Below, one piece after another: positions 1-4,817 of a stretch of DNA of 64,000 bases. The stretch covers positions 4,543-68,542 of the forward strand of contig CAJKLB010000001.1 of the NCBI GenBank assembly GCA_905200615.1, given 5' to 3'. The first letter of the stretch is position 1. Every line of letters starts with the position of its first letter. The position numbers were made by a program, and so were the translations under genes. The notes beneath the pieces were generated by a model. That model was not told where the DNA came from. It ran no database searches and saw only the letters and a program-made list of their open reading frames with translations. The DNA is from an uncultured Selenomonadales bacterium (lineage in GTDB: Bacteria; Bacillota; Clostridia; Christensenellales; QALW01).

Positions 1-560
1 TTTTTCTCCCAAGGGAACTTTACTGTGTATTCATCAGATCGTTCTCCATAGTTGGGTCTAATCGTCCGTCCACCTTCGATGATCTCGTCCAATGTCACAG
101 GCTCATAGTTCCAGTACATACAGCCCACATTATAGATTTCATTTCGGCATCCGATGCTGTTCAGATACTTAGCAAAGTCCACCTCAAAGTCTGCTTCATC
201 CGTAAAGTGGGAGTGCGCGTGGAGGTGGATTGCCTGATGTCTGTGTCCGTTGTACATAGGCTTGAAGAAGTGGTCGAGGATGACTCTTTTCTTCGTGCCG
301 TCTTTCAAGGTGACACAGATATCGTCAGAGTCCTTAATCCCTGCAAGAGCTGCCTTCGCTTTGGCATTGTGCAGGAAGTGGTCGCGATTGCCTTTGATGA
401 GGATGATCTGACCGTTTAGGCTCTTAATGAGTTCCGGTGCATCATCGTTTCGGGCTTTCCAAATCATATCTCCAAGGACATATCTCAAGGCCCGCCTTGA
501 TTTCCTTGCCGTTCTTATCAAAATACTGCATGGGACAATTCTCCTTTCCGATATATTTAC
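1..560 (-). pseudogene. Calcineurin-like (phage-type) metallophosphoesterase, 5'-truncated relic, C-terminus beyond the window edge
   Basis: The minus-strand frame is open from 560 to 1. It reads ..ILIRTARKSRRALRYVLGDMIWKARNDDAPELIKSLNGQIILIKGNRDHFLHNAKA...HLHAHSHF..., giving the GD, GNxDH and H.H metallophosphoesterase motifs. The N-terminal DxH motif segment is missing and there is no start codon in that frame. An RBS-preceded ATG at 531..529 opens a different frame that stops after 29 codons (442..444). Confidence 0.55.
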
Positions 561-590: not shown

Positions 591-632
591 AACGAAAAAG
601 GAGGTTGCGCATAAAATGTATGCGCAACCTCC
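591..632 (-). terminator. Rho-independent terminator of the two-gene cassette
   Basis: Perfect 13-bp stem GGAGGTTGCGCAT / ATGCGCAACCTCC (600-612 / 620-632) with a 7-nt loop, followed on the minus strand by TTTTTCGTT. It is preceded by a second hairpin at 643-672, just after the stop codon at 686. Confidence 0.75.
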
Positions 633-685
633 CTGAAATACAGAAGCCCTTAACATTCAGTTAGGGGCTTCTATTACAGATATAT

Positions 686-1486
686 TCACCAACTGTATTC
701 GGAAAATTTAATCGTATAGGTTTCTCCGGGGACAACATCATAAACTATTATAGTGTCATCTTTGAACTTGTCGCCGTTAGAAAGAGAGGATAAGGAGAGC
801 ATACCATCCTCAACCATAAAATCCTTGCTGTCGTAGATTTTGTATTTGATCATATCATATGTAGAAGAACTCCCATATGTTTTCGAGCCAGTTACGGTGA
901 TTTTTAATTGAGAAGTAAACTCCTTTTCATATGTGTATTTTACTTCTTCAATTCTAATCTTGGATTCTACTTTGCCATCATAGCCTTTGACATTAATTTC
1001 TTGGGGCAAACCGTCAGCTATGAGTTGTACATCTTTGACTGGCAAGCAATACAATGCTTCGCAATTCACCTCATCAAACCGTAGGAATTCTCCCTTGTAA
1101 ACTGTTAGGTATACTTTTCCATTTGCTGAAGTGCCCGTGGCAATATTTGATGCAGGGATTCTCAGATTTGCTAAATACTGCTCACCCGCCACCTTGCTTG
1201 AATAATATCCAAAATCATCTTTGGTTATGGAATGCGTCCCACTATATACTTCTTCACCGTTATCATTCACAATTCGAATGTCAACATCGACATCAGCAGA
1301 AACATATCGCTCCGAGACAGTTAACAAAGCAAAGAATACACTATAGTCATTCGTGCCTTCGTTGTGTTGAAAAGACCAGTTTTTCAGTGTTTCAATGTCG
1401 GATGTTCTTGTTCCAACTGGAACTAACGAACATCCGCATAATTGAATTACTAACAAAAGTACTAACAATAATACTGATTTTTTCAT
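686..1486 (-). CDS. Lipoprotein of unknown function (beta-rich), second gene of the cassette
   Basis: The ORF-track frame is 686..1576. I place the start at ATG 1486 (MKKSVLLLVLLLVIQLCGC: signal peptide plus lipobox L-C-G-C). It overlaps the upstream stop in an ATGA junction. I recognise no family. Confidence 0.65.
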   Translation of the reverse strand: MKKSVLLLVLLLVIQLCGCSLVPVGTRTSDIETLKNWSFQHNEGTNDYSVFFALLTVSERYVSADVDVDIRIVNDNGEEVYSGTHSITKDDFGYYSSKVAGEQYLANLRIPASNIATGTSANGKVYLTVYKGEFLRFDEVNCEALYCLPVKDVQLIADGLPQEINVKGYDGKVESKIRIEEVKYTYEKEFTSQLKITVTGSKTYGSSSTYDMIKYKIYDSKDFMVEDGMLSLSSLSNGDKFKDDTIIVYDVVPGETYTIKFSEYSW

Positions 1487-2616
1487 TTGTCTTTGCCCCC
1501 AACAACCAATTCCGTCATTTCTCTTTTCAACTGTTTTAACTCTTTTTGGGGACGAAGACAAGTTACCCGATTGCATTGTTCATTCAGATAACATGTTTCG
1601 CAGATAATTTCACTTACAGCTTGCTCAGCCAGTTCTTTATCTGTTGGGAGTGCGTATTTATCAATCTTCTTGATGCTTTTGGGTTCTCTTAGCGAATAGT
1701 CAATCTGCTTTCCATTACTTGTTTTTACATATCGATAAACTTCTGCAAAGAAGGAAACGCCATCTCCGATTTCATATTCTTCAAAGCCTTTAATGCTCAT
1801 CCAAACATGTTCTTCTTTGCCATCAAAACATAGGCCGTCAGGATACATTCCTTCAACGAATATGCGTTCAAAGCAAATATTATCTTTGGTCTTTCTTTCA
1901 ATAGTTCCCTTAAATGAAAGAGGAATGCTGTGGTAACAGGTTGCAAACCATTCTCTTGTTTTATGGAAAGATCTGATTTGTACATCAATATAGTCATCGT
2001 AGGAAAATCTTTCTGCACCTACTACATCGCTGTATCCATTTGGATCAAAGTCTATATCCCCATCATATGTTTGAACTATTATTTTTTCGCCATAATATGT
2101 GGCAAATGTTTCTTTGTATTCCGGATATTTTTGAATTAAGTTAACTGCTTTTTTTATTCTCTCGGATCGACAGGCTTTATTTCTTTCTTCTTCAAGCTGC
2201 TTTTGTTTCTTCTCTTGCTTTTCAATGTATTCCATTTCGCTTGCGGTCAATAAGGGAGTTATTTGATCCTTGTTGTCGTATTTTCCGCTTGCTAACGATG
2301 ACTTGAACCGATTGAGAATGGATTTAAGCATTTCGGGAGACAGAAACTTTGCTTTCTCGATGGAGCAACTATGGTAGCAGCCAGTGTAAATATTGCCGTG
2401 TCCGTTTCCGTACATAACAGCAGTATTCCACGGACATAAGTAGTGTTCTTTTTGAATCAGCTTACCACGCTTTAATCCGTCTTCGAATTCGGGGAAAATT
2501 TGGGGATTGCCACAGCCTTCATAATCGTCCACCCAAAAGCCTGATGGGCCTTTGTCTGCATGTTGAATCATAACATCCAACACTTCAATTGTTTTTTCTT
2601 TCTTTTCGGTTTTCAT
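1483..2616 (-). CDS. Hypothetical 377-aa cytoplasmic protein, Cys/His-rich ends and a central Lys/Glu coiled-coil
   Basis: Long ORF with a GGAGG RBS upstream of ATG 2616. It has Cys clusters (YEGCGN, LCPW, TGCYHSCS; C-terminal CETCYLNEQCNRVTC) and a central EKQEKKQKQLEEERNK segment. I recognise no family. Confidence 0.65.
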   Translation of the reverse strand: MKTEKKEKTIEVLDVMIQHADKGPSGFWVDDYEGCGNPQIFPEFEDGLKRGKLIQKEHYLCPWNTAVMYGNGHGNIYTGCYHSCSIEKAKFLSPEMLKSILNRFKSSLASGKYDNKDQITPLLTASEMEYIEKQEKKQKQLEEERNKACRSERIKKAVNLIQKYPEYKETFATYYGEKIIVQTYDGDIDFDPNGYSDVVGAERFSYDDYIDVQIRSFHKTREWFATCYHSIPLSFKGTIERKTKDNICFERIFVEGMYPDGLCFDGKEEHVWMSIKGFEEYEIGDGVSFFAEVYRYVKTSNGKQIDYSLREPKSIKKIDKYALPTDKELAEQAVSEIICETCYLNEQCNRVTCLRPQKELKQLKREMTELVVGGKDK

Positions 2617-2704
2617 TATTACAACCTCCGTTAATAAGTGCCGCCGTCTGGCGACCTGACATGTTAACAGCGGTTTAGTGGACTAATATTTTACTGTGTG
2701 AAAC

Positions 2705-2733
2705 ATTATAACATAATATTGCAGAAAACGCAA
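2705..2733 (-). promoter_or_regulatory. Sigma-A type promoter for the 1483..2616 / 686..1486 cassette
   Basis: The minus strand reads TTGCGT (2733-2728), a 17-nt spacer, then TATAAT (2710-2705) with an upstream TGt. It lies about 90 nt upstream of the ATG at 2616. Confidence 0.5.
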
Positions 2734-2973
2734 TGAGATTACGAAAAGTGCCGCTTTTTCGTTAAGAAAATATAATAGCTTGGTGATTGAACCGTCAACA
2801 CAAAGCCGGTAAGACACAAACATTTAACAATCAGAGAAACGAAAAAAGGGGCAGACTCTGCGAAAATAATCGCAAAATCTGCCCCTAAAAGCCCAGGTAT
2901 TTAGTTCAAGTCCTCCCCAAAGGTCGTTTTTGGGGAATGATATCTTTTGAATTGCACCTTGAAAAATGGCACG

Positions 2974-3039: not shown

Positions 3040-3116
<77 letters not shown>

Positions 3117-3140: not shown

Positions 3141-3169
3141 ATTATATACAATAACAATTAAAATGTCAA
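3141..3169 (-). promoter_or_regulatory. Consensus sigma-A promoter of the tRNA gene
   Basis: The minus strand reads TTGACA (3169-3164), a 17-nt spacer, then TATAAT (3146-3141), about 25 nt upstream of the mature tRNA 5' end. Confidence 0.65.
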
Positions 3170-3248: not shown

Positions 3249-4817
3249 TTACATAAAATCACTGTCATCTTCCGAACTATATTTTTCGGTTGTTTTTTCT
3301 TTGTTTTTATTCTCTTCAGAATCCTGTTGCAAAGGTTGATAAAAGAAATTTTCCGTATTTTCGGATTCCCCTGTTGTTTCATCAAGTCCCCAATCACGCA
3401 CAGAATCAAGTGATTGTGCTTTTTTTCTTTTTACAAGCAAAACAACAAGTGCCGCAAGCACAGCCGCAAGCGCAACAACCGCCGCCGCAAGCGCCGCTTT
3501 ACGCCAATCAATTCCGGTTTGTATTATAACCGGAGGCTGTGTTTCCTGGGGAAGCCGTTCCTCCAGCAATGCGGAAGAAAGCTTTTGCACGGTTCCGTCC
3601 TCCGCGCAGTACACACACAAATATTTTTCACCTGTCGTATTGTTCATCGCGCTGATAATATAATAGCCTTCACCCAGCAAATCCGTCTGCCATGCAGGAA
3701 AACTTTCCCCGTTTATTTCAAACATCACCGTTTTCCAAGAAGAAGGTACGGTCTGCATCGCAGAGGCAAATATCGTATATACCGTCTGCGCGCCGGAAGT
3801 CAATGTTTGAAAAAGCGAGAAGGTAAGATTCTTTTCATCCAGAATATAAAAATAGGAATCCGTTTCATCTGAAAGCAGCACTAACCGAACATCACCAAAA
3901 ACCGCTGTCTGAATCGTGCGGCCGGAATAGGTGTATTCCTCCGCGGTAAACCCCGCGGGCAATTCTTTAGAAATCTGCTCCTCAAGAATAAAGCTCTTTC
4001 CGTCTACCGTTACCGTCAGTGAACCGTCAGGCGATGTTCCCGGTTCTTCCGTAGGAGGAACGGGCGTAGGCTCGGTACTTTCCGCGGCTTGGCGAGTAAT
4101 CGTAATCGTATACGTTTTGGTAGTACCGTCCTCTGCCGTTACCCGTACACTTCGGGTATTTTTTCCTACATCAAGGCTCACCTTGCCGATAAACTCGATA
4201 CTGGATTTTGAATCAGACCGTGTAGGCTCTATCGGAAAAGAGGTCACGCTGTAAGGCACCGTACAGGTATACTGCGTGACATTCGAGGAAAACGCCGGTG
4301 AAAGCGTACAGCCCTGAGGTACTTTCAATGCCGAAAGATTGCAGTTGGAAGAAAGCGAGGGAGAAGGCTTAGCCTTAACGGTTACGCTGGCCTCGGCGGT
4401 AGGCGTCCCTAAAGGATCGCCGTTCGTATCTCCGATATCGCTGCTGGTCAGCTTTACCGTTGCGGCACCCACCGCAGAAGCGGTAAACGTAAGCGTTACC
4501 GTATACGTCGCGGAAGTATTAGAAGAACTATAGTCTGATATTTGAATCGTTCCTCCGCCGGAAGCATTGACATTTGCATTGCCTAAACTGCTACTATAGC
4601 TTTTATACTGCAATCTGGAAGTGTCAAACGAGAACAGCGTATCGGCACTGCCTACCGCGGCGGAGCCGGTAAAACGAAAGGTAAACGTAACGGAATCTCC
4701 CACATAGGGAGTAGATGAGGACGCGGATGCCGCGACTTGACAGGCCGCGGATACTGGCAGCAGCATAAAAGTCATAAGAATCGCGGCGGCAAGCACCGCG
4801 GTAAGAACTCGTTTCAT
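3249..4817 (-). CDS. Membrane-anchored surface protein: signal peptide, cohesin-like domain, cadherin-like beta-sandwich domain, unknown domain, C-terminal TM helix and acidic cytoplasmic tail
   Basis: AAGGAG RBS. The signal peptide is MKRVLTAVLAAAILMTFMLLPVSAA. The N-terminal module PYVGDSVTFTFRFTGSAAVGSADTLFSFDTSRLQY...ATYTVTLTFTASAVGAATVKL resembles the cohesin pattern (GDtV.v.V.f.g...gi...dF...YD...Le). LSALKVPQGCTLSPAFSSNVTQYTCTVPYSVTSFPIEP...VRVTAEDGTTKTYTITITR is a typical cadherin-like beta-sandwich. The TM segment is AALAAAVVALAAVLAALVVLLV followed by KRKK. Confidence 0.6.
   Translation of the reverse strand: MKRVLTAVLAAAILMTFMLLPVSAACQVAASASSSTPYVGDSVTFTFRFTGSAAVGSADTLFSFDTSRLQYKSYSSSLGNANVNASGGGTIQISDYSSSNTSATYTVTLTFTASAVGAATVKLTSSDIGDTNGDPLGTPTAEASVTVKAKPSPSLSSNCNLSALKVPQGCTLSPAFSSNVTQYTCTVPYSVTSFPIEPTRSDSKSSIEFIGKVSLDVGKNTRSVRVTAEDGTTKTYTITITRQAAESTEPTPVPPTEEPGTSPDGSLTVTVDGKSFILEEQISKELPAGFTAEEYTYSGRTIQTAVFGDVRLVLLSDETDSYFYILDEKNLTFSLFQTLTSGAQTVYTIFASAMQTVPSSWKTVMFEINGESFPAWQTDLLGEGYYIISAMNNTTGEKYLCVYCAEDGTVQKLSSALLEERLPQETQPPVIIQTGIDWRKAALAAAVVALAAVLAALVVLLVKRKKAQSLDSVRDWGLDETTGESENTENFFYQPLQQDSEENKNKEKTTEKYSSEDDSDFM

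Follow-up and report, generated by a model that had tools for sequence, protein, structure and literature searches.

A conserved structured leader RNA precedes a mobile two-gene cassette of gut Clostridia with a possible role in defence or exclusion

What does a compact pair of genes that matches no described family do for the gut bacterium that carries it? The question arises from a 64,000-nucleotide stretch of DNA from an uncultured Selenomonadales bacterium (assembly GCA_905200615.1, contig CAJKLB010000001.1, positions 4,543 to 68,542 of the forward strand), referred to here, at its full length, as the window. Close to its left end, the minus strand carries a cassette of two genes encoding a cysteine-rich protein, A, and a predicted lipoprotein, B. 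A first-pass annotation, made from the letters alone, recognised neither protein, and both families are indeed uncharacterised, with no match in any family library. The same annotation took the cassette for a prophage moron, a reading that survives in part and that overlooked the conserved structured RNA in the leader of gene A. We propose, tentatively and at somewhat less than even confidence, that the cassette is an autoregulated, horizontally mobile accessory module whose purpose is probably defence or exclusion.

The region forms one transcription unit, with a promoter, a structured leader, gene A, a translationally coupled gene B, and a terminator (Table 1). The promoter TTGCGT-N17-TATAAT is the single exact match to this pattern in the window, against 0.01 expected by chance. 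Its −10 box is perfect and preceded by a TG extension, and its −35 box agrees with TTGACA at three of six positions, which is why a consensus scan did not list it; the earlier description of a near-consensus promoter thus holds for the −10 box and not for the −35. Judging from the −10 box, transcription would start near position 2698, giving a leader of ~80 nt. The stop codon of gene A and the start codon of gene B overlap as ATGA, and the tandem 3' hairpins (673..591) fold with an energy of −50.5 kcal/mol (z = −8.4). The self-contained unit of the first-pass annotation, with a leader of about 90 nt, ATGA-coupled genes, and tandem hairpins ending in a strong terminator, is therefore present in all its parts, the leader being slightly shorter. 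A neighbouring tRNA-Met gene (3116..3040) has its own consensus promoter and terminator, and the cassette is therefore a separate unit. As had also been noticed, the cassette is richer in AT than its surroundings: its GC content is 37.8%, compared with 46.4% in the rest of the window, and locally it stays at 36–39% across the unit against 44–53% to the right. A second promoter-like site, TTGACG-N18-TATATT, lies at 2769–2798 on the minus strand, ~60 nt upstream of the main promoter, with a small hairpin (2760..2742) between the two.

Table 1. Positions of the cassette features and of the related mobile element (window coordinates, unless a locus is named).
Feature	Position	Strand	Basis and details
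Promoter	2733..2705	minus	TTGCGT-N17-TATAAT; −35 at 2733..2728, extended −10 TGTTATAAT at 2713..2705
Structured 5' leader motif	2690..2614, core 2675..2623	minus	Alignments, covariance model
Leader outer helix	2675..2664 with 2634..2623	minus	AACC-CUGUUAA pairs with UUAACGG-GGUU
Leader apical stem	2655..2651 with 2644..2640	minus	Pair counts
Shine-Dalgarno sequence GGAGG	2629..2625	minus	Enclosed by the leader outer helix
Gene A	2616..1483	minus	Open reading frame, 377 aa
Gene B	1486..686	minus	Open reading frame, 266 aa, N-terminus MKKSVLLLVLLLVIQLCGCS
First 3' hairpin	673..643	minus	RNA fold; directly after the B stop codon
Intrinsic terminator	634..591	minus	16-bp stem (634..598) plus T-tract; terminator scan, inverted repeat, RNA fold
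5.2-kb element	L032 9280-14459; also in L029, L030, L034, L045 and L057		Sequence comparison

The most distinctive feature of the cassette is the leader RNA. Over ~50 nt ahead of the Shine-Dalgarno sequence, conservation exceeds that of the proteins, and the core reads GUUARCAUGUCAGG, a stem-loop, and then CACUUAUUAACGGAGG. Both RNAalifold and explicit pair counts resolve this segment into a bulged hairpin, in which the internal loops CAUGUCAGG and CACUUAUUA are invariant, and the minimum-energy fold of the window sequence yields the same hairpin. Among 67 aligned sequences, 98.9% of cells are paired, 10 of the 13 pairs show compensatory changes, and all five apical pairs covary; none of 500 shuffles reaches the observed pairing statistic, and slid controls stay near zero. 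The outer helix extends into an ACC/GGU pairing around the Shine-Dalgarno sequence, with C21–G74 formed in 25 of 26 sequences. The leader contains G-U pairs and scores much lower on the opposite strand, and therefore acts on the sense strand, as RNA. With its covariation, its sense-strand action, and its place next to the ribosome-binding site, the leader belongs to the general class of cis-regulatory structured RNAs. Rfam 15 holds no match to 2614..2690 at E ≤ 1 (3.4 kb searched), and a search with 151 nt returned only a spurious miRNA hit on the opposite strand (E = 2.7); no relevant literature was found on the leader core sequence.

The protein that follows this RNA has no signal peptide and no significant match in Pfam, PHROGs, PADLOC, or NCBIfam, and profile searches of PDB sequences with it were empty. 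Its homologues form 465 clusters at E ≤ 1e-3, with a mean column identity of 60%. The AlphaFold2 model of A (pLDDT 89.6) and the alignment divide the protein into three parts. An N-domain (residues 1 to ~120) contains four cysteines, C35, C61, C80, and C84, that are nearly or fully invariant. It is followed by a long helix (residues 125–156) and then by a C-domain (residues 169–375) built of a five-stranded barrel (231–318) that weakly resembles an oligonucleotide/oligosaccharide-binding (OB) fold, a C-terminal helix, and a four-cysteine (Cys4) motif, Cx2Cx5Cx4C, whose cysteines C339, C342, C348, and C353 are invariant. An exhaustive profile search revealed that the C-domain also occurs commonly by itself, as a protein of ~200–240 aa. 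A, which has two Cys4 sites, would be a cytoplasmic metal-binding protein that binds nucleic acid.

How tightly is the leader tied to this protein? Three sets of observations bear on the answer. First, in each of 85 loci a covariance model detects the leader exactly once, and every time immediately 5' of an A-family gene; C-domain-only genes and two IMG/VR contigs are among these cases. Second, in an independent test, metagenome contigs were scanned by the flanking sequence pattern alone, which gave at least 120 matches, of which 80 loci were analysed. In 78 of these, an A-family open reading frame (ORF) starts right after the Shine-Dalgarno sequence (63 full-length, 15 C-domain-only); of the other two, one runs into the end of its contig and one is followed by a 68-aa HNH-like ORF. 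Each of the 80 sequences forms all four variable stem pairs, and 11 stem variants occur among them; in shuffles the corresponding number averages 56.6 and never exceeds 65. Third, the leader was not found upstream of P0371 (locus L095), a viperin fusion that shares other parts of A and is without the OB domain, and the Lactobacillus plasmid locus L094 gave no significant leader match. The leader thus occurs essentially only before genes encoding the C-domain of A, with its OB-like barrel and Cys4. Since it accompanies C-domain-only genes and not the OB-less viperin fusion, the C-domain would be the partner of the RNA. This tightest of associations, between an RNA and an OB-plus-Cys4 domain, looks like the signature of an autoregulatory protein-binding leader. 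L126 is the sole evaluable case of the leader (4765–4804, minus strand) before a non-A ORF; the 68-aa ORF there carries the HNH-like motif HH...CSNCH and begins with residues similar to those that open C-domain-only proteins, and the contig ends soon after.

The viperin fusions place the remaining parts of A in a second context. The N-domain of A is fused to prokaryotic viperin in three mutually distant proteins (P0317, P0361, and P0371, from loci L095, L105, and L106), which score 222–235 bits against the NF038283 cut-off of 180. Their N-terminal extension of ~350 aa consists of the A N-domain (E 1e-29 to 1e-49), an unrelated ‘NLNPLP’ domain, and a helix-Cys4 unit just before the radical-SAM core, with a domain E-value for the Cys4 motif of 2.7e-7 in P0371 and 1e-3 to 2e-3 in the other two. 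Because the same Cys4 modules surround a different central domain in these fusions, A is modular, a Cys4-Cys4 scaffold that brackets an exchangeable middle domain. The likeness to prokaryotic viperins (pVips, NF038283) thus lies in the N-domain and helix-Cys4, which three of them carry N-terminally and in unchanged order. In contrast to the fusions, A has no radical-SAM domain, its centre is an OB-like barrel instead of ‘NLNPLP’, and its leader motif is not found upstream of P0371. A has no Radical_SAM or viperin match in Pfam or NCBIfam, and so does not qualify as a radical-SAM protein with a CxxxCxxC motif. A JGI metagenome scan for the viperin-type scaffold was empty, the same alignment, used in a word-indexed search, retrieved nothing beyond P0371 itself, and no relevant literature on such fusions was found. 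The P0371 gene is preceded, with a 15-nt gap, by a lipoprotein gene unrelated to B; a general lipoprotein link of viperin fusions was discarded as anecdotal, as P0317 and P0361 have none. P0317 has a C-terminal helix-turn-helix (HTH) and is encoded in a defence island, next to genes for a DUF1156 methyltransferase and a PLD/SNF2 helicase.

The second protein, B, is a predicted lipoprotein. Its N-terminus begins with MKK, followed by a hydrophobic stretch and the lipobox L-C-G-C, in which C19 is invariant and L16 nearly so among 60 homologues. Searches of Pfam, PADLOC, and NCBIfam gave nothing significant for B, PDB-sequence profile searches were also empty, and PHROGs contained no family match, the best E-value (0.011) spanning the signal peptide only. 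Homologues of B form 561 clusters at E ≤ 1e-3, with a mean column identity of 55%. In the AlphaFold2 model (pLDDT 91.5), a helix (residues 2–20) and a disordered linker precede two Ig-like β-sandwich domains, in which conserved candidates for metal ligands are limited to C142 and C147. Foldseek returned generic tandem β-sandwiches only (transglutaminase C-terminal domains, complement MG domains, the lambda tail tip, and arrestins), and from such generic neighbours no function of B was drawn. B would be exported and lipid-anchored on the outer face of the membrane, displaying its two Ig-like domains.

The two genes travel together more often than not. In a scan of one genome per species, the A family was confined to gut Clostridia and relatives, and B lay directly downstream of 42 of the 57 full-length A genes, with the ATGA overlap in 29; the other 15 have no B, three of them at contig ends. 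Had homologues of A and B been unlinked, the idea of a functional cassette would have suffered, as the first-pass annotation recognised; the linkage is instead clear. It recurs in the loci found via the RNA pattern, where B follows 43 of 52 complete full-length A genes. A complete B lies beside 3 of 22 C-domain-only genes, and B follows the C-domain-only form in L072, L081, L082, and L099. Other surface proteins occasionally take the place after A: a different 160-aa lipoprotein with an LAAC lipobox follows full-length A in L027 (11276–11758), and on the Lactobacillus amylovorus plasmid p2 (L094, 6960–8147) the gene after a C-domain-only homologue encodes a SLAP-domain surface protein, with two DNA methyltransferases nearby.

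From these parts, a regulatory circuit can be sketched. The C-domain of A would bind its own leader and so set the translation of A and, via the ATGA coupling, of B. The logic would resemble that of T4 gp32 or of ribosomal-protein operons, with which the cassette shares a putatively OB-like barrel plus a cysteine-ligand motif and a structured, family-restricted leader at its own ribosome-binding site. The comparison with gp32 is an analogy only, with no sequence or significant fold match; unlike gp32, A has an extra N-terminal Cys4 domain and its operon includes a lipoprotein.

The same leader could also be explained by riboswitch control of a function unrelated to conflict. The RNA would sense a small molecule or metal, A would be metal- or redox-related (possibly Fe-S), and B would be an envelope protein serving the same condition, the whole forming a niche-adaptive, horizontally moving module. 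Such a design would account for the invariant internal loops and the sequestered Shine-Dalgarno sequence, as in translational riboswitches, and for the eight conserved cysteines of A. Many flanking genes are housekeeping genes, and a few loci have iron or redox neighbours: FeoAB and a DtxR-type repressor in L099, and Rrf2, DsbD, and thioredoxin beside an A-less long B variant in L102. However, one hairpin whose apical loop varies would make a small aptamer, and restriction to one gene family is typical of autoregulatory protein-binding leaders. The neighbourhoods are not conserved and so supply no pathway context, B offers a generic Ig-like fold with no conserved metal-ligand cluster beyond its two cysteines, and the N-domain of A is common to antiviral viperin fusions. 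On balance, we regard a riboswitch-controlled, non-conflict function as an unlikely but live rival.

Whatever the control, the cassette is foreign in origin, and comparison of its loci shows an accessory module that has moved horizontally between gut Clostridia. When species are compared, DNA homology begins ~55–135 nt upstream of the A start codon and stops at the B stop codon, limits that support the boundaries of the unit. The GC content of the cassette is below that of its flanks in 63 of 68 loci. Neighbouring genes are almost never shared, the largest neighbour cluster occurring in 10 of ~80 loci, and the tRNA-Met flank is common to only one Ruminococcus metagenome-assembled genome (MAG). 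A protein identical to A is present in human-gut assemblies, including MAG GCA_902473275.1. Cultured carriers of the cassette include Pseudoflavonifractor capillosus ATCC 29799, Yanshouia hominis BX1, and Flavonifractor/Dysosmobacter isolates.

One vehicle for this spread has been identified. A 5.2-kb element, 93–99% identical across genera of Oscillospiraceae (Flavonifractor, Pseudoflavonifractor, Yanshouia, and others) and found at different insertion sites, consists in order of a terminal repeat, promoter, leader, A, B, a 72-aa ORF, a large serine recombinase (domains Resolvase, Recombinase, Zn_ribbon_recom, and DUF4368), and a second terminal repeat. The terminal repeats are imperfectly inverted (GGGTAGC-N4-CATAA-N-ACAGGTTT), and the A-B cassette is the sole identified cargo. 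Host flanks form a terminator-like hairpin at no fewer than three of the six insertion sites, with partial complementarity at a fourth, so that the element seems to insert into terminator loops; no relevant literature was found on terminator-targeting serine recombinases. A cassette in a small unit with a large serine recombinase, terminal repeats, and varied sites recalls Tn4451/Tn5397-type transposons (TnpX/TndX), a likeness that rests on the type of element and not on a direct comparison of recombinase homology. The present element differs from them in belonging to one lineage only, in carrying A and B instead of a resistance gene, and in apparently inserting into terminator-like hairpins. 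In the window, the terminal repeats were not found, and the recombinase element was rejected as the carrier there.

With A and B as the only identified cargo of an element that is near-identical across genera, one may ask whether they serve the element itself, by stabilising it or by barring a second copy or a competitor. TraT and ICEBs1 YddJ are exclusion lipoproteins of conjugative elements, and B would act likewise. P0033, a protein with 84% identity to the A of the window, is fused to a recombinase zinc-ribbon domain and encoded beside ParB_N and DUF6133 genes, which are presumably typical of clostridial integrative elements, and ParE toxins and recombinases recur among the neighbours of the family. 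Against such a maintenance or exclusion function, most loci, the window included, are without recombinase and terminal repeats, conjugation genes, which would call for exclusion, are missing from the 5.2-kb element, and neither A nor B is similar to known toxin-antitoxin or exclusion proteins; we consider it an improbable, though live, rival.

The neighbours of the cassette were surveyed for recurrence among 208 nearest neighbours, taking the 25 most frequent families per set. The recurrent families are serine recombinase domains, HTH_3, ParE, ResIII, GmrSD_N, AAA_14, and housekeeping genes; within these limits no phage structural family recurs (two or more times). PADLOC models that match neighbours at E ≤ 1e-10 include type I, II, and III restriction-modification, AbiLi/AbiLii, a Thoeris-like TIR (ThsB/SAVED-TIR), PARIS AriA, Wadjet JetC/JetD, DRT, a GajB-like model, and several PDC candidates. 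One neighbour cluster (cluster 5), resembling a type I restriction-modification methyltransferase, lies just downstream of the C-domain-only genes of L074, L075, L077, and L086 and of the full-length A of L035.

Searches for phage carriage were almost entirely negative. A and B have no tblastn match in 50,697 phage genomes, IMG/VR (2.9 million contigs) contains no full-length A and only three matches, all to the C-domain-only form, and the leader pattern was not found in viral contigs. As a general identity, the prophage moron of the first-pass annotation therefore gives way to the 5.2-kb recombinase element as the identified vehicle; of the features expected of a moron, the cassette has its own promoter and terminator and a lower GC content, and does not have a location in a prophage with phage-borne homologues. 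Where the homologues lie had also been thought decisive, and the outcome is divided: A and B co-occur, a mobile element carries them, and some neighbours are of defence type, while phage carriage is nearly absent and many flanks are housekeeping genes.

The island around the window cassette explains why a moron was proposed. The gene to its left (up to position 531, minus strand) matches the phage phosphoesterase phrog_547 only from profile position 73 of 245, so that the cassette does adjoin a phage-type phosphoesterase without its 5' end, as described earlier. Some 70 N-terminal profile positions are missing and the gene is frameshifted as well; the possibility that it is intact, having a start codon and ribosome-binding site, was dismissed on the PHROG alignment. 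The gene occupies window positions 1–531 and continues to the left of the window (L007 12086–12953); its frameshift falls between a short new N-terminus (MQYFDKNGKEIKAGLEI) and an LGDMIW motif, and the residues DKNG and GNRD resemble, by eye only, degenerate metal-binding motifs. Farther left, beyond the window, are a Cro/CI-type HTH gene paired with DUF3990, a NinI-like phosphatase, and an IS30-type transposase; phage structural genes were not found in 10 kb of this island, whose remnants are mobile or phage-like. The overlapping pair of HTH_3 (215 aa) and DUF3990 (232 aa) genes (L007, 13209–14520), to the right of the transposase, resembles a toxin-antitoxin-type module and recurs in L021.

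On the other side of the cassette, the tRNA-Met promoter is a perfect 12/12 sigma-70 consensus (TTGACA-N17-TATAAT; 3141–3169, minus strand), and a strong terminator for the tRNA lies at 2886..2847. Between the tRNA and its terminator, a 15-nt sequence (GTTCAAGTCCTCCCC, 2904–2918, plus strand) resembles the T-arm of tRNA-Met (3049–3063) in the opposite orientation and may be a fragment left over from a tRNA or an attachment site. Around the cassette, a repeat search yielded no convincing flanking direct or inverted repeats.

A moron would carry A and B as lysogenic-conversion cargo, with B blocking phage adsorption or DNA injection in the manner of the superinfection-exclusion lipoproteins Ltp (phage TP-J34) and Llp (phage T5). 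Like these, B is a small lipoprotein that has a signal peptide and a lipobox and is encoded on horizontally acquired DNA that brings its own promoter and terminator. It differs from them in having no PHROG family or phage-genome match, in its two Ig-like sandwiches (Ltp is built of helix-turn-helix-like repeats), and in its translational coupling to a large cytoplasmic partner behind a structured leader. Of the three IMG/VR contigs with the C-domain-only form, two (L091 and L092) match the leader model, and in L091 the gene follows a small membrane protein that is holin-like by eye only. Despite the moron-like layout, the truncated phrog_547 gene, and the nearby NinI-like phosphatase, Cro/CI-type regulator, transposase, and tRNA gene, the moron reading is distinctly improbable, given the absence of A and B from the phage genomes, of full-length A from IMG/VR, and of the leader pattern from viral contigs, the lack of a PHROG match or a recurrent structural neighbour, the recombinase element as vehicle, and the absence of any role for A and the leader; it is possible for the window's own island and does not describe the general nature of the cassette.

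We thus return to the autoregulated, mobile module and its possible role in defence or exclusion. The A-B pair may serve in conflict with phages or other mobile elements, a role suggested by three features: the cassette is the sole identified cargo of a small serine-recombinase element, defence genes are frequent among its neighbours, and the N-domain and Cys4 of A are fused to viperins.

Several considerations weigh against this proposal. The OB-fold assignment of A is weak, the barrel matching SSB-type OB folds in Foldseek at E 1e-3 to 1e-2 only (PDB and BFVD), and a lone bulged hairpin might just as well be a small riboswitch or be bound by some other factor. A defence role would come without homology to any characterised protein; PADLOC-DB 2.0.0 has no family for A or B with E up to 1. 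Defence-type neighbours number very roughly 25 of 208, a count without a matched control that includes generic models (UvrD helicase, TatD), and many loci are flanked by housekeeping genes (LysRS, GreA, YceG). A cytoplasmic A and an extracytoplasmic B have no obvious route of communication. About a quarter of genomes have A without B, and long B variants exist without A; therefore, the two proteins need not act together.

A bolder version of the proposal would see here a new horizontally mobile immunity or exclusion system, made of a family-specific riboregulator, a cytoplasmic sensor or regulator with two Cys4 sites and an OB-like barrel, and a surface lipoprotein, with the Cys4 scaffold as a reusable adaptor that also occurs on viperin effectors. 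We hold this version to be conceivable and rather doubtful. A, B, and the leader match no described family, and their newness is to be understood as the absence of a library match and not as a demonstrated mechanism.

With hundreds of protein clusters, the module is frequent in the gut Clostridia of humans and animals, bacteria about whose accessory genes and phage interactions little is understood. Its leader RNA, which covaries very cleanly and is linked one-to-one to a protein domain, is an unusually direct candidate for a new RNA-protein autoregulatory pair. The Cys4 scaffold common to A and the viperin fusions could show how some bacterial viperins are regulated. A 5.2-kb element that carries only A and B implies that the benefit of the cassette is strong enough to ride on. 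If a role in defence or exclusion is true, catalogues of defence systems, in which strict anaerobes are under-represented, would gain from such organisms a type in which a surface lipoprotein takes part.

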